From positions 106,199,651 through 106,263,650 of the forward strand of contig NC_090376.1 in assembly GCF_036365525.1 (NCBI RefSeq): a DNA stretch of 64,000 bases, read 5' to 3'. The notes under the pieces are model-generated. The model searched no databases. It saw only the letters and a program-made list of their open reading frames with translations, and was not told the DNA's origin. Positions 6,001 to 64,000 of this stretch are shown here, piece by piece. The DNA is from Heterodontus francisci. Lineage: Eukaryota. Position 1 is the first letter of the stretch. The number at the start of each line of letters is the position of its first letter. Made by a program: the position numbers and the translations under genes.

Positions 6001-9000
6001 CCACTCTGTATTTGTGTGTGGATAAGGACAGGGTGGCGGGAAACGGGGCCACTCTGCATTTGTGTATGGATAAGGACAGGGTGGGGGGGAAACGGGGCCG
6101 TTCTGCATTTGTGTATGGATAAGGACAGATTGGGGGGAAATGGGGCCACTCTGCAATTGTGTATGGATAAGGGAGCGGTGGGGGGAAATGGGGCCACTCT
6201 GTATTTGTGTGTGGATAAGGGCAGGGTGGGGGGAAACGGGGCCACTCTGCATTTGTGTGTGGATAAGGACAGGGTGGCGGGAAACGGGGCCACTCTGCAT
6301 TTGTGTGTGGATAAGGGCAGGGTGGGGGGAAACGGGGCCACTCTGCATTTGTGTATGGATAAGGGCAGGGTGGGGGGAAACGGGGCCACTCTGCATTTGT
6401 GTATGGATAAGGGCAGGGTTGGGGGAAACGGGGCCACTCTGCATTTGTGTATGGATAAGGGCAGGGTGGGGGGAAACGGGGCCACTCTGCATTTGTGTAT
6501 GGATAAGGGCAGGGTGGGGGGAAACGGGGCCACTCTTTATTTGAATATGGATAAGGGCAGGGTGGGGGGAAACGGGGCCACTCTGCATTTGTGTGTGGAT
6601 AAGGGCAGGTTGGCGGGAAACGGGGCCACTCTGCATTTGTGTATGGATAAGGACAGGGTGGGGGGAAACGGGGCAGTTCTGCATTTGTGTGTGGATAAGG
6701 ACAGATTGGGGGGAAATGGGGCCACTCTGCAATTGTGTATGGATAAGGGAGCGGTGGGGGGAAATGGGGCCACTCTGTATTTTTGTGTGGATAAGGGCAG
6801 GGTGGGGGGAAACGGGGCCGCTCTGCATTTGTGTGTAGATAAGGACAGGGTGGTGGGAAACGGGGCCACTCTGCATTTGTGTGTGGATAAGGGCAGGGTG
6901 GTGGGAAACGGGGCCACTCTGCTTTTGTGTATGGATCAGGGCAGGGTGGGGGGAAACGGGGCCACTCTGCATTTGTGTCTGGATAAGGGAGCGGTGAGGG
7001 GAAACGGGGCCACTCTGTATTTATGTGTGGATAAGGGGAGGGCGGGGGGAAACGGGGCCACTCTTTATTTGTGTATGGATAAGGACAGGGTGGGGGGAAA
7101 CGGGGCCACTCTGCATTTATGTGTATGGATAAGGGCAGAGTGGGGGGAAACGGGGCCACTCTGCATTTGTGTATGGATAAGGGCAGGGTGGGGGGAAACG
7201 GGGCCACTCTGCATTTGTGTATGGATAAGGACAGGGTGGGGGGGAAACGGGGCCGTTCTGCATTTGTGTATGGATAAGGACAGGGTGGGGGGAAATGGGG
7301 CCACTCTGCAATTGTGTATGGATAAGGGAGCGGTGGGGGGAAATGGGGCCACTCTATATTTGTGTGTGGATAAGGACAGGGTGGCGGGAAACGGGGCCAC
7401 TCTGCATTTGTGTATGGATAAGGACAGGGTGGGGGGAAACGGGGCCGTTCTGCATTTGTGTATGGATAAGGACAGATTGGGGGGAAATGGGGCCACTCTG
7501 CAATTGTGTATGGATAAGGGAGCGGTGGGGGGAAATGGGGCCACTCTGTATTTGTGTGTGGATAAGGACAGGGTGGGGGGAAACGGGGCCACTCTGCATT
7601 TGTGTGTGGATAAGGACAGGGTGGCGGGAAACGGGGCCACTCTGCATTTGTGTGTGGATAAGGGCAGGGTGGGGGGAAACGGGGCCACTCTGCATTTGTG
7701 TATGGATAAGGGCAGGGTGGGGGGAAACGGGGCCACTCTGCATTTGTGTATGGATAAGGGCAGGGTGGGGGGAAACGGGGCCACTCTGCATTTGTGTATG
7801 GATAAGGGCAGGGTGGGGGGAAACGGGGCCACTCTGCATTTGTGTATGGATAAGGGCAGGGTGGGGGGAAACGGGGCCACTCTTTATTTGAATATGGATA
7901 AGGGCAGGGTGGGGGGAAACGGGGCCACTCTGCATTTGTGTGTGGATAAGGGCAGGTTGGCGGGAAACGGGGCCACTCTGCATTTGTGTGTGGAGAAGGA
8001 CAGGGTGGGGGGAAACGGGGCCACTCTGCATTTCTGTCTGGATAAGGACAGTGTGGGGGGAAACGGGGCCACTCTGCATTTGTGTATGGATAAGGACAGG
8101 GTGGGGGGAAACGGGGCCACTCTGCATTTGTGTATGGATAAGGACAGAGTGGGGGGAAACGGGGCCGTTCTGCATTTGTGTATGGATAAGGACAGGGTGG
8201 GGGGAAATGGGGCCACTCTGCAATTGTGTATGGATAAGGGAGCTGTGGGGGGAAATGGGGCCACTCTGTATTTGTGTGTGGATAAGGACAGGCTGGCGGG
8301 AAATGGGGCCACTCTGCATTTGTGTATGGATAAGGACAGGGTGGGGGGAAACGGGGCAGTTCTGCATTTGTGTATGGATTAGGACAGATTGGGGGGAAAT
8401 GGGGCCACTCTGCAATTGTGTATGGATAAGGGAGCGGTGGGGGGAAATGGGGCCACTCTGTATTTTTGTGTGGATAAGGGCAGGGTGGGGGGAAACGGGG
8501 CCACTCTGCATTTGTGTGTGGATAAGGACAGGGTGGCGGGAAACGGGGCCACTCTGCATTTGTGTGTGGATAAGGGCAGGGTGGTGGGAAACGGGTCCAC
8601 TCTGCTTTTGTGTATGGATAAGGGCAGGGTGGGGGGAATGGGGGCCACTCTGCATTTGTGTATGGATAAGGGCAGGGTGGGGGGAAACGGGGCCAGTCTG
8701 CATTTGTGTATGGATAAGGGCAGGGTGGGGGGAAACGGGGCCACTCTGCATTTGTGTATGGATAAGGGCAGGGTGGGGGGAAACGGGGCCACTCTTTATT
8801 TGAATATGGATAAGGGCAGGGTGGGGGGAAACGGGGCCACTCTGCATTTGTGTGTGGATAAGGACAGGGTGGGGGGAAACGGGGCCACTCTGCATTTGTG
8901 TGTGGATAAGGGCAGTGTGGCGGGAAACGGGGCCACTCTTTATTTGTGTGTGGATAAGGGCTGGGTGGCGGGAAACGCGGCCACTCTTTATTTGTGTATG

Positions 9001-12000
9001 GATAAGGGCAGGGTGGGGGGAAACGGGGCCACTCTGCATTTGTGTGTGGATAAGGACAGGGTGGGGGGAAACGGGGCCACTCTGCATTTGTGTGTGGATA
9101 AGGACAGGGTGGGGGGAAACGGGGCCACTCTGCATTTGTTTGTGGATAAGGACAGGGTGGGGAGAAACGGGGCCACTCTGCATTTGCGTGTGGATAAGGA
9201 CAGGGTGGGGGGTAACGGTGCCACTCTGCATTTGTGTATAGATAAGGGCAGGGTGGGGGGAAACGGGGCCACTCTGCATTTGTGTGTTGCTAAGGACAGG
9301 GTGGGGGGAAACGGGGCCACTCTGCATTTGTGTGTGGATAAGGACAGGGTGGGGGGAAATGGGGCCACTCTGCATTTGTGTGTGGATAAGGACAGGGTGG
9401 GGGGAAATGGAGCCACTCTGTAATTGTGTATGGATAACGGCAGGGTGGGGGGAAACGGGGCCACTCTGCATTTGTGTGTGGATAAGGGCAGGGTGGTGCG
9501 AAATGGAGCCACTCTGTATTTGTGTATGGATAACGGCAGGGTGGGGGGAAACGGGGCCACTCTGCATTTGTGTCTGGATAAGGGAGCGGTGAGGGGAAAC
9601 GGGGCCACTGTGCATTTGTGTATGGATAATGGCAGGGTGGGGGGAAACTGGACCACTCTACATTTGTGTCTGGATAAGGGCAGGGTGGGGGGAAGCGGGG
9701 CCACTGTGCATTTGTGTGTGGATCAGGACAGGGTGGGGGGAAACGGGGCCACTGTGCATTTGTGTATGGATAAGGGCAGGGTGGGGATAAACGGGGCCAC
9801 TCTGCATTTGTGTGTGGATAAGGACAGGGTGGGGGGAAACGGGTTCACTCTGCATTTGTGTGTGGATAAGGGCCGGGTGGGGGGAAAGGGCGCCACTCTG
9901 CATTTGTGTATGGATAAGGGCAGGATGGGGGGAAACGGGGCCACTCTGCATTTGTGTATGGATAAGGGCAGGGTGGGGGGAAACGGGCCCACTCTGCATT
10001 TGTGTATGGATAAGGGCAGGGTGGGGGGAAACGGGGCCACTCTGTATTTATGTGTGGAGAAGGGCAGGGCGGGGGGAAACGGGGCCACTCTTTATTTGTG
10101 TATGGATAAGGTCAGGGTGGGGGGAAACGGGGCCACTCTGCATTTATGTGTGGATAAGGAAAGGGCGGGGGGAAACGGGGCCACTCTGCATTTATGTGTG
10201 GGGAAGGACAGGGCGGGGGGAAACGGGCCCACTCTGTATTTGTGTATGGATAAGGACAGGTTGGGTGGAAACGGCGCCACTCTGCATTTGTGTATGGATA
10301 AGGGCAGGGTGGGGGGAAATGGGGACACTCTGTATTTGTGTGTGGATAAGGACAGGGTGGGGGGAAATGGAGCCACTCTGCATTTGTGTATGGATAAGGA
10401 CAGGGTGGGCGGAAATCTGGACACTCTGTATTTGTGTGTGGATAAGGACAGGGTGGGGGGAAATGGAGCCACTCTGCATTTGTGTGTGGATAAGGACAGG
10501 GTGGGGGGAAATGGAGCCACTCTGTAATTGTGTATGGATAACGGCAGGGTGGGGGGAAATGGGGACACTCTGTAATTGTGTATGGATAACGGCAGGGTGG
10601 GGGGAAACGGGGCCACTCTGTATTTGTGTGTGGAGAAGGACAGGGTGGGGGGAAATGGAGCCACTCTGTAATTGTGTATGGATAACGGCAGGGTGGGGGG
10701 AAACGGGGCCACTCTGTATTTGTGTATGGATAACGGCAGGGTGGGGGGAAACGGGGCCACTCTGCATTTGTGTATGGATAAGGACAGGGTGGGGGGAAAT
10801 GGGGCCACTCTGCATTTGTTTATGGATAAGGACAGGGTGGGGGGAAATGGAGCCACTCTGTAATTGCGTATGGATAACGGCAGGGTGTGGGGAAACGGGG
10901 CCACTCTGCATTTGTGTCTAGATAAGGGAGCGGTGAGGGGAAACGGGGCCACTGTGCATTTGTGTATGGATAAGGGCAGGGTTGGTGGAAACGGGGCCAC
11001 TCTACATTTGTGTCTGGATAAGGGCAGGGTGGGGGGAAGCGGGGCCACTCTGCATTTGTGTGTGGATAAGGACAGGGTGGGGGGAAACGGGGCCACTCTG
11101 CATTTGTATGTGGATAAGGACAGGGTGGGGGGAAGCGGGGCCACTCTGCATTTGTGTGTGGATAAGGACAGGGTGGGGGGAAACGGGGCCACTCTGCCTT
11201 TGTGTGTGGATAAGGACAGGGTGTGGGGAAACGGGGCCACTCTGCATTTGTGTGTGGATAAGGACAGGGTGGGGGGAAACGGGGCCAGTCTGCATTTGTG
11301 TATGGATAAGGGCAGGGTGGGGGGAAATGGGGCCACTCTGCAATTGTGTATGGATAAGGGAGCGGTGGGGGGAAATGGGGCCACTCTGTATTTGTGTGTG
11401 GATAAGGGCAGGGTGGGGGGAAACGGGGCCACTCTGCATTTGTGTGTGGATAAGGACAGGGTGGCGGGAAACGGGGCCACTCTGCATTTGTGTGTGGATA
11501 AGGGCAGGGTGGCGGGAAACGGGGCCACTCTGCATTTGTGTATGGATAAGGGCAGGGTGGGGGGAAACGGGGCCACTCTGCATTTGTGTATGGATTAGGG
11601 CAGGGTGGGGGGAAACGGGGCCACTCTGCATTCGTGTATGGATAAGGGCAGGGTGGGGGGAAACGGGGCCACTCTGCATTTGTGTATGGATAAGGGCAGG
11701 GTGGGGGGAAACGGGGCCACTCTTTATTTGAATATGGATAAGGGCAGGGTGGGGGGAAACGGGGCCACTCTGCATTTGTGTGTGGATAAGGACAGGGTGG
11801 GGGGAAACGGGGCCACTCTGCATTTGTGTGTGGATAAGGGCAGGGTGGCGGGAAACGGGGCCACTCTTTATTTGTGTGTGGATAAGAGCTGGGTGGCGGG
11901 AAACGGGGCCACTATTTATTTGTGTATGGATAAGGGCAGGGTGGGGGGAAACGGGGCCACTCTGCATTTGTGTGTGGATAAGGACAGGGTGGGGGGAAAC

Positions 12001-15000
12001 GGGGCCACTCTGCATTTGTGTGTGGATAAGGACAGGGTGGGGGGGAAACGGGGCCACTCTGCATTTGTTTGTGGATAAGGACAGGGTGGGGAGAAACGGG
12101 GCCACTCTGCATTTGCGTGTGGATAAGGACAGGGTGGGGGGAAACGGGGCCACTCTGCATTTGTGTATAGATAAGGGCAGGGTGGGGGGAAATGGAGCCA
12201 CTCTGCATTTGTGTGTGGATAAGGGCAGGGTGGTGCGAAATGGAGCCACTCTGTATTTGTGTATGGATAACGGCAGGGTGGGGGGAAACGGGGCCACTCT
12301 GCATTTGTGTGTGGATAAGGGCAGGGTGGTTCGAAATGGAGCCACTCTGTATTTGTGTATGGATAACGGCAGGGTGGGTGGAAACGGGGCCACTCTGCAT
12401 TTGTGTCTGGATAAGGGAGCGGTGAGGGGAAACGGGGCCACTCTGCATTTGTGTATGGATAAGGGCAGGGTGGGGGGAAACGGGGCCACTCTACATTTGT
12501 GTCTGGATAAGGGCAAGGTGGGGGGAACGGGTGCCACACTGCATTTGTATGTGGATAAGGACAGGGTGGGGGGAAACGGGGCCACTCTGTATTTGTGTGA
12601 GGATAAGGGCAGGGTGGGGGGAAGCGGGGCCACTGTGCATTTGTGTGTGGATCAGGACAGGGTGGGGGGAAACGGGGCCACTGTGCATTTGTGTGTGGAT
12701 AAGGACAGGGTGGGGGGAAACGGGGCCACTCTGCATTTGTGTGTGGATAAGGACAGGGTGGGGGGAAACGGGGCCACTCTGCATTTGTGTGTGGATAAGG
12801 ACAGGGTGGGGGGAAACGGGGTCACTCTGCATTTGTGTGTGGATAAGGGCAGGGTGGGGGGAAAGGGGGCCACTCTGCATTTGTGTATGGATAAGGGCAG
12901 GATGGGGGGAAACGGGGCCACTCTGCATTTGTGTATGGATAAGGGCAGGGTGGGGGGAAACGGGCCCACTCTGCATTTGTGTATGGATAAGGGCAGGGTG
13001 GGGGGAAACGGGGCCACTCTGTATTTATGTGTGGAGAAGGGCAGGGCGGGGGGAAACGGGGCCACTCTTTATTTGTGTATGGATAAGGTCAGGGTGGGGG
13101 GAAACGGGGCCACTCTGCATTTATGTGTGGATAAGGAAAGGGCGGGGGGAAACGGGGCCACTCTGCATTTATGTGTGGGGAAGGACAGGGCGGGGGGAAA
13201 CGGGCCCACTCTGTATTTGTGTATGGATAAGGACAGGTTGGGGGGAAACGGCGCCACTCTGCATTTGTGTATGGATAAGGGCAGGGTGGGGGGAAATGGG
13301 GACACTCTGTATTTGTGTGTGGATAAGGACAGGGTGGGGGGAAATGGAGCCACTCTGCATTTGTGTATGGATAAGGACAGGGTGGGCGGAAATGGGGACA
13401 CTCTTTATTTGTGTGTGGATAAGGACAGGGTGGGGGGAAATGGAGCCACTCTGCATTTGTGTGTGGATAAGGACAGGGTGGGGGGAAATGGAGCCACTCT
13501 GTAATTGTGTATGGATAACGGCAGGGTGGGGGAAATGGGGACACACTGTAATTGTGTATGGATAACGGCAGGGTGGGGGGAAACGGGGCCACTCTGTATT
13601 TGTGTGTGGAGAAGGACAGGGTGGGGGGAAATGGAGCCACTCTGTAATTGTGTATGGATAACGGCAGGGTGGGGGGAAACGGGGCCACTCTGTATTTGTG
13701 TATGGATAACGGCAGGGTGGGGGGAAACGGGGCCACTCTGCATTTGTGTTTGGATAAGGACAGGGTGGGGGGAAATGGGGCCACTCTGCATTTGTTTATG
13801 GATAAGGACAGGGTGGGGGGAAATGGAGCCACTCTGTAATTGTGTATGGATAACGGCAGGGTGGGGGGAAACGTGGCCACTCTGCATTTGTGTCTAGATA
13901 AGGGAGCGGTGAGGGGAAACGGGGCCACTGTGCATTTGTGTATGGATAATGGCAGGGTGGGGGGAAACTGGACCACTCTACATTTGTGTCTGGATAAGGG
14001 CAGGGTGGGGGGAAGCGGGGCCACTCTGCATTTGTGTGTGGATAAGGACAGGGTGGGGGGAAACGGGGCCACTCTGCATTTGTATGTGGATAAGGACAGG
14101 GTGGGGGGAAGCGGGGCCACTCTGCATTTGTGTGTGGATAAGGACAGGGTGGGGGGAAACGGGGCCACTCTGCATTTGTGTGTGGATAAGGACAGGGTGG
14201 GGGGAAGCGGGGCCACTCTGCATGTGTGTATGGATAAGGACAGGGTGGGGGGAAACGGGGCCACTCTGCATTTGTGTGTGGATAAGGACAGGGTGGGGGG
14301 AAACGGGGCCACTCTGCATTTGTGTGTGGATAAGGACAGGGTGGGGGGAAACGGGGCCACTCTGCATTTGTGTATGGATAAGGGCAGGGTGGGGGGAAAC
14401 GGGGCCTCTCTGTATTTATGTGTGGAGAAGGACAGGGTGGGGGGAAATGGTGCCACTCTGCATTTATGTGTGGATACGGGCAGGTTGGGGGGAACCGGGG
14501 CCACTCTGTATTTGTGTATGGATAAGGGCAGGGTGGGGAGAAACGGGCCCACTGTGCATTTGTGTATGGATAAGGAAAGGGCGGGGGGAAACGGGGCCAC
14601 TCTGCATTTGTGTATGGATAAGGGCAGGGTGGGGAGAAACGGGCCCACTGTGCATTTGTGTATGGATAAGGGAGCGGTGGGGGGAAATGGGGACACTCTG
14701 TATTTGTTTGTGGATAAGGACAGGGTGGGGGGAAACGGGGCCACTCTGCATTTGTGTATGGATAAGGACAGGGTGGGGGGAAATGGGGCCACTCTGCATT
14801 TGTGTGTGGATAAGGACAGGGTGGGGGGAAACGGGGCCACTCTGCATTTGTGTGTGGATAAGGACAGGGTGGGGGGAAACGGGGCCACTCTGCATTTGTG
14901 TGTGGATAAGGGCAGGGTGGGGGGAAACGGGGCCACTCTGCATTTGTGTATGGATAAGGGCATGGTGGGGGGAAACGGGGCCACTCTGCATTTGTGTATG

Positions 15001-16775
15001 GATAAGGGCAGGTTGGGGGTAAACGGGGCCACTCTGCATTTGTGTATGGATAAGGGCAGGGTGGGGGGAAACGGGGCCACTCTTTATTTGATTATGGATA
15101 AGGGCAGGGTGGGGGGAAACGGGGCCACTCTGCATTTGTGTGTGGATAAGGACAGGGTGGGGGGAAACGGGGCCACTCTGCATTTGTGTGTGGATAAGGG
15201 CAGGGTGGCGGGAAACGGGGCAACTCTTTATTTGTGTATGGATAAGGGCAGGGTGGGGGGAAACGGGGCCACTCTGCATTTGTGTGTGGATAAGGACAGG
15301 GTGGGGGGAAACGGGGCCACTCTGCATTTGTGTGTGGATAAGGACAGGGTGGGGGGAAACGGGGCCACTCTGCATTTGTGTGTGGATAAGGACAGGGTGG
15401 GGAGAAACGGGGCCACTCTGCATTTGTGTATGGATAAGGGCAGGGTGGGGGAATACGGGGCCACTCTGCATTTGTGTGTGGATAACGGCAGGGTGGGGGG
15501 AAACGGGGCCACTCTGCATTTGTGTGTGGATAAGGACAGGGTGGGGGGAAACGGGGCCACTCTGCATTTGTGTGTGGATAAGGACAGGGTGGGGGGAAAC
15601 GGGGCCACTCTGTAATTGTGTATGGATAACGGCAGGGTGGGGGGAAACGGGCCCACTCTGCATTTGTGTGTGGATAAGGCCAGGGTGGTGCGAAATGGAG
15701 CCACTCTGTAATTGTGTATGGATAACGGCAGGGTGGGGGGAAACGGGGCCACTCTGCATTTGTGTGTGGATAAGGGCAGGGTGGTGCGAAATGGAGCCAC
15801 TCTGTATTTGTGTATGGATAAGGGCAGGGTGGGGGGAAACGGGGCCACTCTGCATTTGTGTCTGGATAAGGGAGTGGTGAGGGGAAACGGGGCCACTGTG
15901 CATTTGTGTGTGGATAAGGACAGGGTGGGGGGAAACGGGGCCACTCTGCATTTGTGTATGGATAAGGGCAGGGTGTGGGGAAACGGGGCCACTCTACATT
16001 TTTGTCGGGATAAGGGCAGGGTGGGGGGAAAGGGTGCCACTCTGCATTTGTATGTGGATAAGGACAGGGTGGGGTGAAACGGGGCCACTCTGTATTTGTG
16101 TGAGGATAAGGGCAGGGTGGGGGGAAGCGGGGCCACTGTGCATTTGTGTGTGGATAAGGACAGGGTGGGGGGAAACGGGACCACTGTGCATTTGTGTATG
16201 GATAAGGGCAGGGTTGGGGTAAACGGGGCCACTCTGCATTTGTGTGTGGATAAGGACAGGGTGGGGGGAAACGGGGCCACTCTGCATTTGTGTGTGGATA
16301 AGGACAGGGTGGGGTGTAACGGGGCCACTCTCCATTTGTGTATGGATAAGGGCGGGGTGGGGGGAAACGGGGCCACTCTGCATTTGTGTATATATAAAGG
16401 AGGGGTGGGGGGAAACGGGGCCACTCTGCATTTGTGTGTGGATAAGGACAGGGTGGGGGGAAACGGGGCCACTCTGCATTTGTGTATGGATAAGGGTGGG
16501 GTTGGGGGCAACGGGGCCACTTTGCATTTGTGTATGGATAAGTGGGGAGGGGAAGGTAGGAGGTCAATTCTGCATTCGTTTCTTGATAAAAGGGGGAAGT
16601 GGTCAACTCTGCATTTGTTTATCAATAAGGGAGGGAAGGGGGCCACTCTGCATTCGTTTATGAATAAGGCGGTGGGGGGTGGGTGTGGGGGAAGCCACTC
16701 TGCATTCGTGTACCATTGGTGGTGGGGCAAGGGGGCAACTCTGCAAATGGATACACTGTTTGTGAGGGGGGGGGC
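1..16775. repeat. 48-bp G-rich tandem minisatellite, ~345 units, continuing off the left edge of the window
   Basis: Consensus GGATAAGGGCAGGGTGGGGGGAAACGGGGCCACTCTGCATTTGTGTAT repeats continuously. Units degenerate over ~16500-16775. Confidence 0.99.
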
Positions 16776-26574: not shown

Positions 26575-26841
26575 TTAAGTGTGACCATGAAGCTGCTGAA
26601 TTGTCATAAAAACCCAACTGGTTCACGAATTTCCTTTGCAGGCAGAAACTGGCTGTCTTTACCCTGTCCAACCTGTGTGTGATTCCCGTCCCACAGTAAC
26701 GTGGTTAACATTTAACTGCCCTCTGAAGTGGCCACATAAGCCATTCAGTTATATCATACCATCTGGCTCAGGGCAACAAGGGATAGAAAATAAATGTCAG
26801 ACTTGCCAGAGACATCCATATCCCAAGAATGAATAAAAAAT
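26575..26841 (+). mobile_element. SINE-like element: LINE 5'-UTR body joined to the 3' tail of the same LINE family
   Basis: GTGACCATGAA..AACTGGTTCAC..TGAAGTGGCC..CAGTTATATCA matches 48620-48800 (-). It is followed by GGGCAACAAGGGATAGAAAATAAATG..ATCCCAAGAATGAATAAAAAA, matching the LINE tail at 45665-45745 (-). Confidence 0.8.
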
Positions 26842-32167: not shown

Positions 32168-32268
32168 GTTTTTTTTCAATTCGTTCAAGGGATGTGGGTG
32201 TTGCTGGCTAGGCCAGCATTTATTGCCCATCCCTAATTGCCCTTGAGAAGGTGGTGGTGAGCTGCTGC
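32168..32268 (-). mobile_element. Short 3' tail fragment of the CR1-group LINE/SINE family seen at 45.7 kb
   Basis: GGGATGTGGGTGTTGCTGGCTAGGCCAGCATTTATTGCCCATCCCTAATTG is nearly identical to 45688-45740. Confidence 0.85.
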
Positions 32269-44700: not shown

Positions 44701-45069
44701 CAAGGTGTTTTTAACACTTTGATGATTATAAGATTATTGACTCAACTTCTATGCAACCTATCAAAAAAAAACACAAACATTTTGAAAACCAAACATGTTG
44801 GCGTCTAAATTTAATATCATTGTGCCTATCTATGTACCTCAAAGGGGAGCAACAATAAGCAATTCAGCAGTGCAGAGTCCCAAGGTCAAAATGCACAGGA
44901 GTTTAGACCATTGCTAAATTGATCGGGCATTTTTTTTTGACAGGCCTGGTTACTGTTTGAACATAACACAGGCCTCATTTCAAAACTCATGCGCTCATAA
45001 CAGACCTGGTTTGCTAAATACGTTTCTGCTGGATGGAACTTGCACTTCAGAAGATCTGACTTGCCTTTA

Positions 45070-45664
45070 ACTAAAAACGAGGTACCAAGCTGGTGAAGCT
45101 ACAACATGAGACTACAAATATGGTAAACACCAGAAGCAGCATACTAAAGACAGAATTAAGCAATCCCACAACCAAGGGATCAGATCAAAGATTTGCAATC
45201 TGCTACATTCAGTCTTGAATAGTGGTAGACAATTAAACAACTAACGGGAGAAGGAGGCTACACATACATTCCCATCCCGAATGATTGTGAAGCCCATCAT
45301 GTTGTGCAAAAGACAAGGGTGAAGTGTTTGCAACCATCTTATGTCAGAAGTGATGAGTAATCCAGCTTGGCCTCCTCCCGAGGGTCCCAGCATCAAAAAT
45401 GGTAGTCTTCAGCCAATTTGATTAACTCTATGTGATATCAAGAAAGGGTTCACCACACTGAAAACAGCAAAGGCTATGGGCCCCGATATCATCCCAGCTG
45501 TAGTGCTGAAGACCTGTGCTCCGTAACTAGTGGCATCCGTGGTCAAGCTGTTCAAGTACAGCTGCAATAGTGGCAACTACCTGACAATGTGAAAAATTGC
45601 CCAGGTATCTCTTGTCCACAAAAAGAGGGACAAATCCAATCTGGCCATTTACTGCCCTATCATT
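45070..45664 (+). mobile_element. CR1-group LINE ORF2, left part of an older host copy
   Basis: KAMGPDIIPAVVLKTCAP motif; homologous to 47030-47620 (-). Confidence 0.85.
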
Positions 45665-48600
45665 CTTCTTTTTTAAAATTCATTCATGGGATGTGGGCGT
45701 CGCTGGCCAGGCCAGCATTTATTGCCCATCCCTAATTGTCCTTGAAAAGGTGGTGGTGAGCTGCCTTCTTGAACCGCTGCAGTCCATGTGAGGTAGGTAC
45801 ACCCACAGTGCTGTTAGGAAGGGAGTTCCAGGATTTTGACCCAGTGACAGTGAAGGAACGGTGATATAGTTCCAAGTCAGCATGGTGTGTGACTTGGAGG
45901 GGAAGTTGCAGTTGGTGGTGTTCCCGTGCATTTGCTGCCCTTGTCATTCTAGTTGGTAGAGGTCATGGGTTTGGAAGGTGCTGTCCAAGGAACCTTGGTG
46001 TTGTTGTAGTGCATCTTGTAGATGGTACACACTCCTGCCACTGTGTGTCGGTGGTGGAGCGATTGAATGTTTGTGGATGGGATGCCAATCAAGCGGGCTG
46101 CTTTGTCCTGGATGGTGTTGAGTTTCTTGAGTGTTGTTGGAGCTGCAGCCATCCAGACAAGTGGAGAGTATTCCATCACATTCCTGACTTGTGCCTTGTA
46201 GATGGTGTACAGGCTTTGAGGAGTCAGAAGGTGAGTTACTCACCGCAGGATTCCTAGCCTCTGACCTGCTGTTGTAGCCACAGTATTTATATGGCTACTC
46301 CAGTTCAGTTTTTGGTCAATGGTAGCCCCTAGGATGTTGATAGTGGGGGATTCAGTGATGGTAATGCCATTGAATGTCAAGGGGAGATGGTTAGATTCTC
46401 TCTTGTTGGAGATGGTCATTGCGTGGTACTTGTGTGGGGCAAATGTTGCTTGCCTCTTATCAGCCCTAGCCTGGATATTGTCTGGGTCTTGCTGCATTTC
46501 TACATGGACTGCTTCAGTATCTGAGGAGTTGCGAATGGTGCTGAACATTGTGCAATCATCAGCGATCATCCCCAATTCTGAGCTTATAATTGAAGGAAAG
46601 TCATTAATGAAGCAGCTGAAGATGGTTGGGCCTAGGACACTACCCTGAGGAACTCCTGCAGTGATGTCTTGGAGCTCAGATGATTGACCTCCAACAACCA
46701 CAACCATCTTCCTTTGCGCAAGGTATGACTCCAACCAGTGGAGAGTTTTGCCCCTGATTCCCATTGACTTCAGTTTTGCTTGGGCTCTTTGATGCCATAC
46801 TCAGTCAAATGCTGCCTTAATGTCAAGGGCAGTCACTTTCACCTCACCTCTTGACTTCAGCTCTTTTGTCCGTGTTTGTACCAAGGCTGTAATGAGGTCA
46901 GGAGCTGAGGAGGAACACAAACTGAGCATCACTGAACAGGTTATTGCTAAGCAAGTGCCACTTGATGGCACTGTTGATGACACCTTCCATCACTTTGCTG
47001 ATGATTGGAGTAGGCTGCTGGGGTGGTAATTGGCCGGGTTGACCTTGTCCTGCGTTTTGTGTACAGGACATACCTGGTCAATTTTCCACATTGCAGGGTC
47101 GATGCCAGTGTTGTAGCTGTACTGGAGCAGCTTGGCTAGAGGCGCAGCAGGTTCTGGAGTACAGGTCTTCAGTACTATTGCTGGAATATTGTCAGGGCCC
47201 ATAGCCTTTGCAGTATCCAGTGACTTCAGTCGTTTCTTCATAACACGCGGAGTGAATCGAATTGGCCAAAGTCTGGCATCTGTGATATTGGGGAATTCAG
47301 GAGGAGGCTGAGATGGATCATCAACTCGGCACTTCTGGCTGAAGATTGTAGCAAATGCTTCAGCTTTGTCTTTTGCACTGATGTGCTGGGCTTCCCCATC
47401 GCTGAGGATGGGAATATTTCTGGAGCTTCCTCCTGTTAGTTGTTTTCTTGTCCACTACGATTCACGACTGGATGTGGCAGGGCTGCAGAGTTTTGATCTG
47501 ATCCATTGGTTGTGGGATCGCTTAGCTTTGTCTATCGCCTGCTGCTTCCACTGTATGGCATGCAAGTAGTGCTGTGCTGTAGTTTCACCAGGCTGACACC
47601 TCATTTTTAGGTATGCCTGGTGCTGTTCCTGGCTTTCCCTCCTGCACTCTTCATTGAACCCAGGTTGCTCCCCTGGCTTGATGGTAATGGTAGAGTGGGG
47701 GATATGCCATGCCATGAGGTTAGAGATTGTGGTTGAATACAGTTCGGTGCTGCTGATGGCCCACAGCACCTCATGGATGCTCAGTTTTGAGTTGCTAGAT
47801 CTGTATGAAGTCTATCCCATTTAACACGCTGGTAATGTTACACAATACGATGGTGGGTATCCTCAGTGTGAAGATGGGATTTTGTCTCCATAAGGACTGT
47901 GCGGTGGTCACTCCTACCCGTACTATCATGGACAGATTCATCTGCGACAGGCAGATTGGTGAGGACAAGGTCAAGTAGGTTTTTCCCTCTTCTTGATTCT
48001 CTCACCACCAGCCGGAGACACAGTTTAACAGCTATGTCTTCTAGGACTCGGCCAGCAGTGGTGCTCCTGAGCCACTCTTGCTGATGGACATTGAAGACCC
48101 CACCCAGAGTACATTCTGTGCCCTTGTTATCCTCAGTGCTTCTCCATGTTGAACACCAATTGGAAGAAGCACTGATTCATCAGCCGAGGTTAGGGGGGCG
48201 GGGGGCAGTAGGTGGTAATCAACAGGTGGTTTCCTTGCCCATTTTTGACCTGATACCATGAGACTTCATGGGGTCTCGGCTTAATATTGAGGACTCCCAG
48301 GGCAACTGCCTCCTGACTGTATAGCACTGTGCCGCCACCTCTGGTGGGTCTGTCCTACCGGTGGGACAGGACATACCCAGAGATGTTGATGTGGTTTCAG
48401 GGACATTGTAAGTTATGATTCCGTGAGTATGACTATGTCAGGCTGTTGCTTGACTAGTCTGTGGGACAGCCCTCCCAATTTTGGCACAAGTCCCCAGATG
48501 TTAATACGGAAGAATTTTCAGTATCGACAGGACTGGTTTTGCCATTGTCATTTCCAGGGCCTCGGTCAATGCCGGGTGGTCCATCCACTTTCATTCCTTT

Positions 48601-48935
48601 TCTTAAGCTTTGTAGCAGTTCTGATACAACTGAGTGGCTTGCTAGGCCATTTCAGTAGGCATTTAAGAGTCAACCACACTGCTGTGGGTCTGGAGTCACA
48701 TGTAGGCCAGACCAAGTAAGGACAGCAGATTTCCTTCCCTAAAGGACATTAGTGAACCAGATGGTTTTTTTGCAACAATCAACAATACATTCATGGTCAC
48801 CATTTGACTAGCTTTTCCAGATAATTCCAGATTCATTCATCTGGTGTGGTGGGATTTGAACCTATGTCCCCAGAGCATTAGCCTAGGCCTCTGGATTACT
48901 ATCCAGTGACATTACTATTGTGCCACCGCCTTGCC
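45665..48935 (-). mobile_element. Near full-length (~3.3 kb) single-ORF CR1-group LINE with tRNA/SINE-like 5' UTR; ORF disrupted
   Basis: APE N-terminus (NIWGLVPKLG.LSHRLVKQQPDIVILTES) at ~48515, RT motifs ALDIKAAFD, GVPQGSVLGP and ADDCT, 3' tail at 45665-45745, and Pol III boxes at the 5' end. Confidence 0.88.
48852..48925 (-). promoter_or_regulatory. Internal RNA polymerase III type-2 promoter (A and B boxes) at the LINE 5' end
   Basis: A-box-like TGGCACAATAG (48925-48915) and consensus B-box GGTTCAAATCC (48862-48852). Confidence 0.65.
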
Positions 48936-48944
48936 TGTAAACGC

Positions 48945-50245
48945 CTAGTACTATCAAGTGGCATTTACTTAGCAATAATTTACTCAACAATGCTCAGTTT
49001 GCATTCTGCCAGGGCCGCTTGGCCCCAGACCTCATTACAGCCTTTGCGCAAACGTGGATAAAAGAGCTGAATTCCAGAGATGAGGTGAGAGTGACTGCCT
49101 TTGACATCAAGGCAGCATTTGACCAAGCGTGGCATCAAGGAGCCAAAGTAAAATTGAAGTCAATGGGAATCGGGGGAAAATCTGCACTGGTTGGAGTCAC
49201 ATCCAGCCCAAAGAAAGATGGTTGTGATTGTTGAAGGCCAATTATCTCAGCCACAGGACAGTGCTGCAGGAGTTTCTCAGGGCTGTGAACTATGCAGAAT
49301 CTTCTTCAGGGGCTTCATGAATAACCTTCCCTCTACTATAATGTCAGAAGTGGGGACGCTCGCTGATGATTGCACAGTCCTCAGTGCCATTCGTAACTCC
49401 TCAGATACTGAAGCAGTCAATGCTTGCATGCAGCGAGACCTGGAGAACATTCTGCCTTTGACTGAGTAGTAGCAATTAACATTCATGCCACACAAGTGCC
49501 AGGCAATGACCATCTCCAACAAGAGAGAATCTAACCATTTCCCCTTGCCAGTTAATGGCATTACCATCACTGAAACCTCCACCATCAACATCCTGGAGGT
49601 TGCCATTTGGCCAGAAACTAAACTGAACCAGCCATATGAATACTGTGGCTACAAGAACTGGTCAGAGGCTAGGAATTCTGCAACAAGTGACTGACTTCCT
49701 GACTCCCCAAAGCCTGTCCACCATCTACAAGTCACAAGTCATGTGTGTGATGGAACACTTCCCACTTGCCTGGATGAGTGCAGCTCCAACAACACTCAAG
49801 AATCTCAATACCATCCAGTGCAAAGCATCCCGCTTGCTTGGCACCCCATCCACCATCTGAAGCATTCACTCCCTGCACCACTAGTACAGAGTGGCAGCAG
49901 TGTTTACCATCTACAAGATCCACTGCAGCAACATGGCAAGGCTTGTTCAACAGTGCCTTCTAAAAGCACAATCACTATCACCTGGAAGAACAAGAGCAGC
50001 AGACTCATGGGAACACCACCTACATGTTCCCTTCTAAGTCAGAAAACATCCTGACATGTAACATGTCACTGTCGCTGGGTCAAAATCTGAAACTCCCTAC
50101 TTAACAGCACTGTGGTTGTACCTACACCACATAGACTGCAGTCATTCAAGAAGGTGGCCACCACCTTCTCAATGGCAATAAAGGATGGACAATAAATGTT
50201 GGCCTTTCCAACGATGCCCACATCCCATGATTGAATAGAAAAAAA
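48945..50245 (+). mobile_element. CR1-group LINE RT and 3' end, right part of the older host copy
   Basis: APDLITA..AFDIKAAFDQAWHQG and ADDCT motifs; 3' tail CACATCCCATGATTGAATAGAAAAAA. Confidence 0.88.
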
Positions 50246-50409: not shown

Positions 50410-53400
50410 TATAATAATCTGGATAACACAACTGAAAACAAGGCAGAATATCGAAGATTCAGAGGGGAAGTGAAAATGTAAAAAAGAGAAGCAAAGAGAG
50501 AGTATGGAAAGAGACTGGCAGCTAATAAAACAGGGAATGCAAAAGTCTTCGATGGGCATTTTAATAGTAAAAAAGTGCTGAAAGGAGGAGTGGGGTTGAT
50601 TAAGGAACAAAAAGGGGATTTACATGGAAGCAGGGGACATGGCTGAGGTATTAAATGAATACTTTGCAACTGTCTTTCCCAAGGAAGAAATGCTGTGCAG
50701 GTCATGGTGAAAGAGGAAGTAATTCAGACACTTGAAAGGTTTAAAATTGATAATGAGGAGGTATTGGATAGGCTCGCTGTATTTAAAGTTGATCAGGCAC
50801 CAGGACCAGATGAGATGCATCGAAGGATAATCAGGGATGTGAGAGTGGAAATTGTGAAAGGGCTGACCACAATTTTCCAGTCTTCCTTAGACTCAGGGGT
50901 GATGCTAGAGGACTGGAAAATTGCAAATGTTACACTCTTGTTCAAGAAAGGGTGTAAAGATAAGACCAGCAACTACAGGCCAGCCAGTTTAAACTCGATG
51001 GTGGGGAAGCTTCTAGAAATGATAATTCGGGACAAAATTAATAGTCACTTGGACAAATGCGGGATAATTAGGGAAAGGCAAAATGGATTTGTGAAGGGCA
51101 AATTGTGTTTAACTAACTTGCAGGAGTTTTTTGATGAAGTAACAAAGAAGGTTAATCAGGACAATGCTGATGATGAGGGGGGTCAGTGGATGTGGTTTAT
51201 TTGGACTTTCAGAAGGCTTTTGACAAAGTCTCAAATAAGAGATTAGAGTGTAAAATTAAAACGCACGGGATTGGTGGTAGTCTATTGCGATGGATCGAAA
51301 ATTGGTTGGCAGACAGGAAACAAAGAGTAGGGATAATTGGGTCTTTTTCCGAATGGCAGGCAGTGACTAGTGGGGTACCGCAGGGATCAGTGCTAGGACC
51401 CCAGCTATTCACAATATATATTAATGATTTAGATGAGGGAACTAAATGTAATATTTCCAAATTTGCAGATGACACAAAACTGGGTTGGAGGGTGATTTGT
51501 GAGGAAGATGCAGAGAGGCTTCAGGGTGATTTGGACAAGTTGAGTGAGTGGCAAATGCATGGCAGATGCAGTATAACGTGGATAAGTGTGAGGTTATCCA
51601 CTTTGGTAGCAAAAACAGGAAGGCAGATTATTAACTGAATGGCTATAAACTGAGAGAGGGGAATATGCAACGAGACCTGGGTGTTCTTGTACACAAGTCG
51701 CTGAAGGTAAGCATGCAGGTGCAACAGGCGATAAAAAAGGCAAATGGTATGTTGGCCTTCACAGTGAATGGATTCGAGTACAGGAGCAGGGATGTCTTGC
51801 TGCAATTATACAGGGCCTTGGTGAGGCCACACCTTGAATATTGTGTGCAATTTTGGTCTCCTTATCTGAGGAAGGATGTTCTTACTATAGAGGAAGTGCA
51901 GCGAAGGTTTACTAGACTGATTCCTGGGATGGCGGGACTGATGTGTGAGGAGAGATTGAGTCGGTTAGGATTATATTCACTGGAGTTCAGAAGAGTGAGA
52001 GATGATCTCATAGAAACCTATAAAATTCTAACAGAACTTGACAGGGTAGATGCAGGAAGGATGTTCCCGATGGGTGGGGGAGTGCAGAACCAGGGGTCAT
52101 AGTATAAGGATATGGGGTAAACAATTCAGGACTGAGATGAGGAGAAATTTCTTCACCCAGAGAGTGGTGAATCTGTGGAATTCGCTAACACATAAAGCAG
52201 TTGAGGACGAAACATTGTATGTTTTCAAGAAGGAGTTAGATATAGCTCTTAGGTTTAAAGGGATCAAAGGATATGGAGCGAAAGCAGGAACAGGTTACTG
52301 AGATGAATGATCAGCCATGATCACAATGAATGGTGAAGCATGCTCGAAGGGCCGAATGGCCTACTCCTGCTCCTATTTTCTATGTTTCTATGTTTCTATA
52401 CAGAGACTTCCAAAAAGCATTTGATAAAGTGCCACACAACAGACTTGTGAGCAAAGTTAGAGTTCCTGGGGAACAGTAGCAATATGGATATGAAATTGGC
52501 TGAGTGACAAGAAACCGAGAGTAGTGGTTAATGGATGGTTTTCGAATTGTAGGAAGGTTTGTAGTGGAGTTCCCCAAGGGCTGTTGCTCGGACCTTTGCT
52601 GTTCCTGATATATATTAACGATCTAGACCTTAATGTACAGTGCACAATTTCAAAATTTGCAGATGAGACAAAACTTGGAATCATTGTGAATTGTGAGGAG
52701 GATAGTGTAGAAGTACAAAAGGACATAGACAGGTTGGTGGAATGAGCGGACAAGTGGCAGATGAAATTTTATGCAGAGAAGTGTGAAGTGATTCATTTTG
52801 GTAGGAAGAATGCAGAGAGACAATAAAAAATTAAGGGTGGAATTGTAAAGGGGGTATAGGGGCAGAGGAACCTGGGTGTATATGTGTACAAATTATTGAA
52901 GATGGCAGGACAGGTTGAGAAAACAGTTAGTAGAGCATACAGCACTCTAGGTGTCATTAATAGTAGCAATGAGTGCAAAAGCAAGGAAGTTATGTTAAAC
53001 TTGTATCAAACACTGGTTCGGCCTCAACTGGAGTTATATGTCTAGTTCTGGGCGCCACACTTTAGCAAAGGTATGAAGGCATCGGACAGAGTGCAGAAAA
53101 GGTTGATGAGAATGGTTCTAGGGATCAGGAACTTCAGTTACATGGATAGATTGGAGAAGTTGGGACTGTTTTATTTGGAGAAGAGAAGGTTGAGAGGAGA
53201 TTTGATAGAGGTATGTAAAATCATGAGGGGTCTGCACATAGTAGATAGGGAAAAACTGTTCCCACTGGTGGAGGGATTGAGAACAAGAGGGGACAGATTT
53301 AGGGTAATTGGCAAAAGAAGAAATAGTGCCATGAGGAAAAACTGTTTCATGCAGCCAGTGGTTAGGATGTGGAATGCACTGCCTGAGAGTGTGTTGGAGG

Positions 53401-57287: not shown

Positions 57288-58200
57288 CTTTTTTATTCTT
57301 TCATGGGATATGAGTGTTGTTTGCAAGGCCAGCATTGTTGCCCACCCCTAATTGCCCTTGAGAAGGTGGTGGTGAGCTGTTTTCTTGAACTGCTGCAGTC
57401 CATCTGGTGCGCATATGCCATAGTGCTGTTAGGAAGGGAGTTCCAGGATTTTGATCTATTGACAGTGAAGGAATGGCAATGCAGTTCCAAGTCAGGATGG
57501 TGTTTGACTTGAAAGGGAACTTGCAGATGGTGGTGTTCCTATGCGTCTGCTGTCCTTGTCCTTCTAGGTGGTAGAGGTTGCGGGTTTGGAAGGTGCTGTT
57601 GAAGGAGCCTTGGCGAGTTGCTGCAGTGCATCTTGTAGATGGTACACACTGCTGCCACTGTGTATTGATGGTGGAGGGAGTAAAATCAGTTGGTGGATGG
57701 GGTGCCGATAGAGCAGACTGCTTTGTCCCGGATGGTGTCAAGCTTCTTGAGTGTTGTTGGATTTGCACTCATTCAAGTCAAGGGGGGAGCATTCCTGCCT
57801 TGTGATTTGTAGATGGTGGACAAACTTTGGGGAGTCAGGAGGTGAGTTGCTCGCCTCAGAATTCCCAGTCTCTGACCTGCTCTTGTAGCCACAGTATCTA
57901 TATGGCTGGTCCAGATCAGCTTCTAGTCAATGGTAACCCCCAGGATGTTGATCGTAAAGCCATTGAGTGTCAAAGGGAGATGGTTAGATTCTCTCTTGTT
58001 TGAGATGATCGTTGCCTGGCACTTTTGTGGTGCAAATATTACTTGCCACTTATCAGCCCAAGCCTGGATGTTGTCCAGTTTCGTTGCATATGGACACAGT
58101 CTGCTTCAGTATCTGAGGAATTGCGAATGGTACTGAACATTGTGCAGTCATCAATGAGTATCCCCATTTCTGACCTTATGATGTAGGGAAGGTAATTGAT
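57288..58200 (-). mobile_element. 3' ~0.9 kb of the CR1-group LINE family at 45.7-48.9 kb
   Basis: Collinear with 45670-46610, including the tail and the DDCTMFSTIRNSSDTEA segment. Confidence 0.9.
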
Positions 58201-58569
58201 GGAAGCAGCTTCTGCTCCTGACCCCTTCTGTCGTACCATTTCACAAAATTTTTCCCTCCTTTTATTTGGACAAAGTTTTCAAGCCAAGTCACAAGCCATT
58301 ACAGTGGCTGAAGCAGTTAGCAGATGCATCTGTTTCAATTGGATGAACAGTGTTTCCTCTTTGAATAGTCCTTGGTATAAACCTGTGCCTGGTATTGAGA
58401 AGAGAAAATAGTCAAATGCCCCTAATATGACTGAGTGACATAATAGGAAACATTTTTTAAATGGTTGAAATGGTAATGAGGGGATGCTCAGTCTGGTGTG
58501 GATCTAACTGGTGCCTCTGTAATAATATCCCATCTCCCTCATCTACTGTCAAATTGGGCAACTTTGATT

Positions 58570-61949: not shown

Positions 61950-64000
61950 AAGGCGTAAAATCAGTCTGGGTAGAAATAAGAAACAGAAAGTCACTGGTGG
62001 GAGTAATCTATAGGCCCCCAAACAGTAGTTCCGCAGTGGGGCACAGTATAAACCAGGAAATACTGGGGGCTTGTAAGAAAGGTATGGCAATAATCATGGG
62101 TGATTTTTGTATGCATATAGACTGGATTGGTCAAATTGGCACGGGTAGCCTTGAGGGAGAGTTCATTGAATGTATTAGAGATTGTTTTTGGAGCAATATG
62201 TTGTGGAACCAACCAGGGAGCAGGCTATTCTAGATTTGGTGTTGTGTAATGAAGTGGGATTAATAAATGATCTCATTGTTAAGGATCCTCTAGGGAAAAG
62301 TGATCATAGCATCCTAGAATTTCAAATTCAGTTTGAGGACGAGAAGCTGGAGTCCCACACAAGCGTTCTGGTGTTAAACAAAGGTAATTATATAGGCATG
62401 GGGACAGATTTGGCCCTAGTGGACTGGGCAGGAAGACGATAAGGTAGGACAGTTGACGAGCAGTGACAGATGTTTAAGGAGATATTCAATTTATCCCAAC
62501 TAAAATATATTCCAGAGAGGAAGAAAGATTCTAGGAGGGGGAAAAGCATCCATGACTAAGCAAGGAAGTTAAGGAGAACATAAAGACAAAAACTAAAGCA
62601 TACCATATTGCAAAGGCCAGTGGAAGGCTGGAAGATTGGGAAACTTTTAAAGATCAACAAAGGGTTACTAAAAAAGTAATAAAAACAGCAAAGGTAAATT
62701 GTGAAAGAAAACTAGCGCTAAATATAAAAATGGATAGCAAAAGCTTCTATAAGTATATAAAAGGGAAGAGAGTAGCTAAAGTTGGTCCATTGGAGGATGA
62801 AACTGGGGAGTTAATAAAAGGGAACTCAGAAATGGCAGAGACACTAAATCAGTATTTTGCTTCAGTTTTCACGGTGGAGGACACTAGTACCATCCCAATA
62901 GTACCAGGTAATGCAGAGGTTATAGAAAGGGTGGCACTTAGAACAATCATCATCGCTAGGGAAAAAGTACTGAGCAAACTATTGGGGCTGAAGGCAGACA
63001 AGTCCCCAGGGCCTGATGGCCTACATCCTAGGGTCTTAAAGGAAGTGGCAGAGGAGTTACTGGATCCATTGGTTATAATATTCCAAAATTCTCTGGATAC
63101 GGGAAAGGTTCCAGTGGATTGGAAAAAAACTAATGTAACGCCCTTATTCAAAAAAGGGAGGGAGGCAGAAAGTAGGAAACTATAGACCAGTTAGTTTAAC
63201 ATCTGTCGTTGGGAAATTGTTAGAATCCATTATTAAGGAAGTAATAACAGGACATTTAGAAAGTCAAAATGCAATCCATCAGAGTCAGCATGGTTTTATG
63301 ACGGGTAAATCATATTTGACTAATTTGCTGGAGTTCTTCGAAGATGTAGCAAGTAAAGTGGATTATGGGGATCCTGTAGATGTAGTATATCTGGACTTCC
63401 AGAAGGCATTTGATAAGGTGCCGCACAAAAGGTTAATACACAAGGTAAGATCACATGGGGTTAGGGGTAATTTATTAGCTTGGATAGAGGATTGGCTAAC
63501 CAACAGAAAACAGAGAGTCGGGATAAATAGGTCTTTTTCTGGTTGGCACGATGTAACTAGTGGGGTGCCACAGGGTTCGGTCCTCGGGCCCCATCTATTT
63601 ACAATCTATATAAGTGACTTGGATCCAGGGATAGAAGGTACTATAGCCAAATTTGCAGATGACACTAAAATAGGTGGGATAGTAAATTGCAATAAAGAAA
63701 TAAGAACTCCACAAATGGATATGGATAGATGAGATAAATGGGCCAAAATTTGGCAGATGGATTTTAATGTGGATAAGTGTGAGGTTATCCATTTTGGTCA
63801 GAAAAATAGAAAGGCAAATTATTATCTAAATGGAGAGAAACTTCAGAGTGCTTCGGTGCAGAAGGATCTGAGTGTCCTCGTGCATGAATTGCAGAAAACT
63901 AGTTTGCAGGTACAGCAGGTGATGAGGAAGGCAAATGGAATTTTGGCAGTTATTTCTGAAGGAATAGAGTATAAAAGTAGGGAAGCGTTGCTGCAACAGC
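61950..64000 (+). mobile_element. CR1 LINE ORF2 (endonuclease + RT) with stops and frameshifts; runs off the right edge
   Basis: GVIYRPP, IIMGDF, LDLVL..SDH, SPGPDGLHPRVLKE, DFQKAFDKVPH, GVPQGSVLGP and FADDTK motifs. Confidence 0.95.

Follow-up and report, generated by a model that had tools for sequence, protein, structure and literature searches.

A tRNA-headed elasmobranch Zenon LINE as a candidate coding retrotransposon of RNA polymerase III

Layout of the element in the window

The window (the whole stretch of 64,000 nt from Heterodontus francisci that was analysed) contains on its minus strand a LINE that opens with a tRNA-like head and runs through a SINE-type body, an APE endonuclease (EN) and a reverse transcriptase (RT) to a 3′ tail. 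The features of this copy, and of an older copy that surrounds it, are as follows.

45669..48935, minus strand: decayed but full-length Zenon LINE copy of the tRNA-headed elasmobranch type, with 90.9% identity to the family majority; coding part with 13 frameshifting indels and 8 in-frame stops
48935-48932, minus strand: G-rich leader of 4-5 nt, ahead of the tRNA-like head
48841..48931, minus strand: head resembling tRNA-Thr(AGT), its variable arm carrying an additional hairpin, assigned by ARAGORN on better copies and by alignment with tRNA-Thr genes; lower edge approximate, placed by eye from better copies
48915..48925, minus strand: A box, decayed in this copy, with 4 of 11 letters unlike the family's
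48852..48862, minus strand: B box
48628..48840, minus strand: SINE-type body (~230 nt), common to the ~395-nt SINEs
from body to EN, minus strand: linker of 110 nt
48454..48594, minus strand: upstream frame of 46 codons that opens with an AUG, is out of frame with EN-RT and stops within the EN coding region
47838..48517, minus strand: APE endonuclease coding region, broken in this copy (Pfam PF14529 piece at 47838-48176)
45732..47837, minus strand: remainder of the single ORF (linker, reverse transcriptase, C-terminal region), likewise broken in this copy (Pfam PF00078 piece at 46240-46800)
45669..45745, minus strand: 3′ tail of ~78 nt, common to the SINEs, with an A-rich run at its end
45068..45669, plus strand: left half of an older family member lying on the opposite strand (family positions ~1340-1947)
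48947..50245, plus strand: right half of the older member, at family positions 1985-3298

The first EN codon (K of KVLLTN) is at 48517, the RT catalytic ADD at 46563-46553 and the stop at 45732, all on the minus strand. The window element sits inside an older opposite-strand copy of its own family and splits that copy in two. At the target site ~37 nt are missing and 11 extra nt are present at 48936-48946; no target-site duplication (TSD) was found at this insertion. ARAGORN and Rfam gave no tRNA call on the window copy, which is too decayed.

A 44-nt inverted repeat at 48132-48175, within the EN coding region, is present in most copies of the family. Elsewhere in the window, further 5′-truncated LINE pieces and a decayed head-plus-tail SINE occupy 57289-58210 (minus), 32169-32265 (minus) and 26600-26840 (plus). 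Other, distant LINE families are represented by fragments (26-34% protein identity) at 62550-63822 (plus) and 52485-53117 (plus), the former doubling as a control in the T-run analysis below. Positions 1-16542 hold a tandem array of a 48-nt unit (~344 copies, 90% matches) with strong G skew.

Recurrence of the head-to-EN junction

The first-pass annotation had described the locus as a single-ORF CR1-group LINE with a tRNA-derived, SINE-type 5′ leader, and recurrence of the junction establishes this as a real, replicating family. A junction query against the source genome (6.0 Gb) returned 13,345 first-look candidates. The head-to-EN junction was matched whole in 39 of 39 other top-scored places, all of which run on into coding DNA; 21 of them were full length in one alignment. 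Because such a query selects for the junction, coding-DNA-only and protein searches were added. With coding-only queries, head sequence was found upstream in 55 of 58 copies: 38 begin at most 40 nt from the 5′ end, 14 begin inside the body and 3 have the head upstream behind an insertion. The other 3 are truncated in the linker and have no common alternative leader. In an older subfamily (~80% to the young majority), retrieved with a diverged junction as query, this head was present in 29 of 29 copies. Contigs spanning body, linker and EN were also found in organisms C, D and E; among the matches listed for organism B, none joins body to EN.

Full copies start at a fixed point 4-5 nt ahead of the tRNA-like fold, and 22 full copies have A-rich runs at the 3′ end; in the family majority an AATAAA lies ~40 nt ahead of the A-tail. 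Copies differ from the majority by 3-5% or more. Shared TSDs had been expected of such a family, and this expectation failed: a match of at least 6 nt was seen in 0 of 22 copies, and the mean match was 3.1 nt vs 2.9 nt in mismatched pairs, so that nothing rose above control. An alternative 5′ end or a hidden ORF1 was considered and rejected, the flanks of 20 5′-shortened copies having in common only family pieces or short repeats in mixed positions and orientations.

The abundance of the family was estimated from 40 evenly placed 10-kb stretches of the source genome. The family and its SINEs made up 28,566 of 400,000 bases (7.1%) and were present in 21 of the 40 stretches. Contigs of RNA runs X17-X20 cover the element, and such contigs carry no start, strand or polymerase information; of these runs, X19 and X20 (small share) were left out as evidence. 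A PDB search gave L1 ORF2p as its sole match.

That the family might already be catalogued proved correct. By sequence comparison it is the published elasmobranch Zenon of the CR1 group (PMC13343379). That paper gives six elasmobranch Zenon consensuses, from five species including a ray; by eye, their first 400 nt agree with head, body and linker, and a 12-nt EN-start motif is present in one of the six (PMC13343379).

Coding content and start of translation

The majority of the 22 full copies has one 975-codon stop-to-stop frame without ORF1. Some 420-430 nt lie ahead of EN, in which the longest AUG-started frame has 46 codons; as the first-pass annotation had noted, there is no room for ORF1. 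A natural full-length copy, L161, has a 942-codon open frame with EN and RT (PF03372, PF14529, PF00078). In an RT tree of 140 RT rows, which held no named Zenon RT, the family groups with unnamed relatives of 35-44% identity, apart from other LINEs of the source genome.

The first-pass annotation had further supposed that ORF1 was lost when the SINE was captured. This is not supported: all Zenon elements described in PMC13343379 are without ORF1, including the headless ones of hagfish and coelacanth, so that ORF1 loss predates the fusion. ZfL2-2 (PMC2666801) likewise has a single ORF.

The first in-frame Met is codon 284, past EN. In 74 of 76 matched copies an upstream AUG lies 92 nt ahead of the AAC codon of EN, and it is out of frame in every one of the 76. 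Among young or middle-aged copies the triplet is ATG in 81 of 85, as it is in six of six published consensuses; in the matched old copies it is ATA (5 of 5). Leaving out 9 CpG-type codons, EN differs between the old and young subfamilies at 17 synonymous vs 9 replacement codons. Purifying selection acts on EN in the family; EN must therefore be translated, and its start is unusual.

The 46-codon upstream frame was rejected as a mini-ORF1 or a fused N-terminus, with 1 synonymous vs 7 replacement changes between the subfamilies. In the ORF frame of the linker the corresponding counts are 1 and 4, and neither linker frame is clearly selected. The frame ahead of EN is rich in Arg, like the N-terminus of P0070, which at 41% identity is the closest full-length relative. 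This likeness hints at a real N-terminal extension, though the linker is without clear coding constraint.

tRNA-like head and SINE-type body

ARAGORN called the head as tRNA-Thr(AGT) in 6 of 12 better-kept copies, and the head aligns with tRNA-Thr genes of the source genome save for a ~19-nt hairpin in the variable arm. Among 106 LINE heads, the A-box pattern was found in 75 and the B-box pattern in 79. The boxes are retained in sharks and a ray, the ray consensus being one B-box letter short.

The 3′ part of the body (family positions ~175-330, window 48770-48620) is almost constant between the old and young subfamilies and across the published shark and ray consensuses; these ~150 nt are better conserved than the boxes. 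The conserved part is a candidate RNA element for translation or RT binding. An Rfam search of head and body returned no match. Known identities for the body were considered. For a Deu domain, as in SacSINE1, comparison by eye with the five Deu domains printed in PMC7245038 gave no clear match, only short common words. LF-SINE was dropped because no source stood behind it and Rfam had no match.

In metagenome relatives the head was matched by BLAST in 0 of 80 loci, where many contigs may stop short of the 5′ end; one unrelated tRNA-Ala call occurred among these 80 loci.

Short head-plus-tail derivatives

Of 29 places found with a head-only query, 8 run into the LINE, 20 consist of head plus tail and 1 is head only. 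The common SINE is ~395 nt long, with junction 321|3222, and these derivatives are short and non-coding, as in a tRNA-derived SINE (SINE2). At least seven other junctions were found, including 335|3155, 342|3163, 346|3152, 350|3154, 354|3138 and 424|3102. Several of them keep linker or coding DNA; the short copies concerned must therefore derive from the LINE.

SINE and LINE heads are interleaved on the head tree, with 11 label changes, 3 of them forced by starred branches. In AU tests on a tree from which 54 of 79 young LINE heads were left out, a single SINE origin gave p 0.061 (38 SINE heads) and 0.031 (29 heads with the main junction). These findings are suggestive of several SINE origins, or of head exchange. 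Either the LINE may have taken the head of a SINE, or a tRNA head may have joined the LINE and the SINEs have arisen later.

Depletion of T-runs on the sense strand

Pol III terminates at four or more T on the sense strand. The majority of the 22 copies (3289 nt) contains no TTTT and 7 TTT on this strand, the TTT count being about one third of expectation. In the ORF, 4 TTT were observed vs 12.9 ± 2.5 with synonymous shuffling, 18.3 with base shuffling and 21.6 ± 3.7 from composition; under each of these models a count that low occurred in 0 of 2000 shuffles. A dinucleotide model predicted 9.3 (P 0.038), and this weaker deficit shows that part of the T-run signal is low TT content. Taken alone, the absence of TTTT had P 0.007-0.075, and 0.29 under the dinucleotide model. 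Eight natural copies had 6-10 TTT vs 20-25 expected, and 0-1 TTTT vs 4-5.

Spans of five nucleotides with four T numbered 1-7 on the sense strand vs 13-16 expected, and 40 on the antisense strand vs 43. The old subfamily majority had 0 such sense spans vs 8.7 expected. The T-run purge is thus strand-specific and is kept in the old subfamily. In 15 stretches of other LINEs of the source genome, which represent a handful of LINE lineages only, there were 97 TTTT vs 66 expected, and TTT reached or exceeded expectation in 13 of 15; six metagenome relatives had 7-36 TTTT per ORF.

The first-pass annotation had proposed that the SINE head serves as promoter and leader. Fusion of the head to EN is a fact of structure; promoter use draws indirect support from the T-run purge, which is the strongest sign, if an indirect one, that the boxes may have been a working promoter of the whole element.

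Proposed mechanism and rival explanations

On the sequence patterns described above, active Zenon copies were probably transcribed end to end by Pol III from their internal A and B boxes, as autonomous LINEs. TFIIIC would bind the two boxes, and Pol III would start at the G-rich leader. The 3.3-kb RNA would survive because T4 terminators have been selected against; as with SINEs, Pol III would continue past the encoded A-tail and end at a flanking T-run. Translation of this RNA would do without a cap, beginning either at a non-AUG codon of the Arg-rich leader or, with a −1 shift, at the conserved AUG. Its product would bind to the 3′ tail, and insertion would proceed by target-primed reverse transcription. 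Promoter and tail would lie at opposite ends, so that internal deletion would give a ready SINE. The fuller picture, of an autonomous coding LINE transcribed by Pol III since before the shark/ray split, translated without a cap or an in-frame AUG and producing tRNA-SINEs through a single step of internal deletion, so that it would amount to an autonomous SINE, has by our estimate about an even chance of being right.

The foremost rival is transcription by Pol II, with either the conserved body or host read-through as its source. The tRNA head would then ride along as a passenger leader, or act as a signal for processing or structure, and something else, for example a low TT content or the avoidance of signals for splicing or decay, would have made the sense strand poor in T. 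LINEs are established Pol II elements, the dinucleotide model accounts for much of the T-run deficit, an AATAAA ahead of the A-tail fits Pol II too, and the 3′ part of the body has been better preserved than the boxes. Against it, neither the other LINEs of the source genome nor the nearest headless relatives have a T-run deficit, the boxes have been kept in sharks and a ray, and full copies start at a fixed point just before the tRNA-like fold. We regard Pol II transcription as unlikely, though it is the most credible of the rivals.

Somewhat less probable again is a division of labour, in which the RNA template, a 3.3-kb "long SINE", is the work of Pol III and the protein comes from separate capped Pol II transcripts, read-through or spliced, of a few copies that supply a start codon. 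This would account for both the T-run purge and the missing in-frame AUG. Pieces of the ORF do occur inside annotated shark and ray gene models (P0002, P0018, P0027, P0028, P0032, P0034, P0039, P0048 and P0064) and may reflect exonisation or annotation error. They would fit such transcripts, but they are internal fragments and maybe annotation artefacts; moreover, purifying selection on EN and RT between the subfamilies is easier to understand if the copied RNA is the translated RNA. The last rival, that a SINE happened to insert next to a truncated LINE at this single locus, might draw on the abundance of both SINE and LINE in the source genome, but it is refuted by the same junction in every set examined and in other species and has next to no probability left.

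Transcription of active Zenon copies by Pol III would bear on a textbook division, which assigns LINEs to Pol II, as mRNAs, and SINEs to Pol III, as non-coding RNAs. If it is true, a 3.3-kb coding retrotransposon selected against Pol III terminators crosses this split, and it offers a natural case of a translated Pol III transcript as well as a one-step route of SINE birth. With near-intact natural copies, and a family that makes up ~7% of the sampled DNA, a promoter test is practical. With the L1 machinery, Pol III transcripts are reported not to need ORF1p (PMC2666806); the link between polymerase and ORF1 need raised by that work would become testable in a self-mobilising element.

Comparison with known systems

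Zenon elements of elasmobranchs, coelacanth and hagfish are all described as lacking ORF1 and ending in a poly-A tail, and the elasmobranch ones as absent from repeat repositories (Stuart et al. 2026, PMC13343379). The CarCar, HypSab, RhiTyp, ScyCan and SquAca Zenon of that paper measure 3244-3314 nt (one 2886) and have one EN-RT ORF, no ORF1 and a poly-A tail, as here. In contrast, the first 400 nt of its hagfish Zenon-1 and coelacanth Zenon-1 are T-rich, unrelated DNA with no such head (PMC13343379). The main text of PMC13343379 has zero matches for tRNA, promoter, start codon, Pol III and polymerase III, and the only SINE match listed falls in its references. The sequence family is in print and the promoter reading is not; the head, the T-run purge, the missing AUG and the derived SINEs go unremarked in that main text.

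The literature searched, from which Repbase, Dfam and most subscription journals were outside, yielded no description of a Pol III-headed shark LINE. The accessible parts of PMC4824008, PMC5753468, PMC9004415, PMC4255032, PMC2000970, PMC5804259 and bioRxiv 349290 contained nothing specific to the element.

ZfL2-2 (PMC2666801) is a CR1-group element that has a single ORF and retrotransposes; it belongs to the L2 clade, and no tRNA head is mentioned in the available text of that paper. RTE-1_DAn and related elements, and Ingi-3_AC (PMC5786205), are LINEs that hold tRNA-like or SINE-like sequence, as here. They belong to other clades and receive passing mention, RTE-1_DAn without position, promoter role or terminator analysis in the available text (PMC5786205). 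In the SINEs with bipartite RTE or Vingi parts of the same source (PMC5786205), a head was joined to LINE ends after deletion, whereas here the LINE itself bears the head.

The Persaeus SIDEs of lepidopteran Zenon (PMC6740152) consist of 5′ and 3′ LINE ends and arose several times by internal deletion, like the SINEs described here. Persaeus is described as having no tRNA homology or Pol III promoter (PMC6740152), whereas the deletion products here are tRNA-headed SINEs. TRNA-derived SINEs (SINE2), including shark SacSINE1 (PMC5499810), have a tRNA head, A and B boxes, a central body and a LINE-type 3′ tail, as does the element here, which also shares with SINE2 the lack of an internal Pol III terminator on the sense strand. 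SINE2 encode no protein, whereas this element is 3.3 kb long and carries an EN-RT frame under selection.
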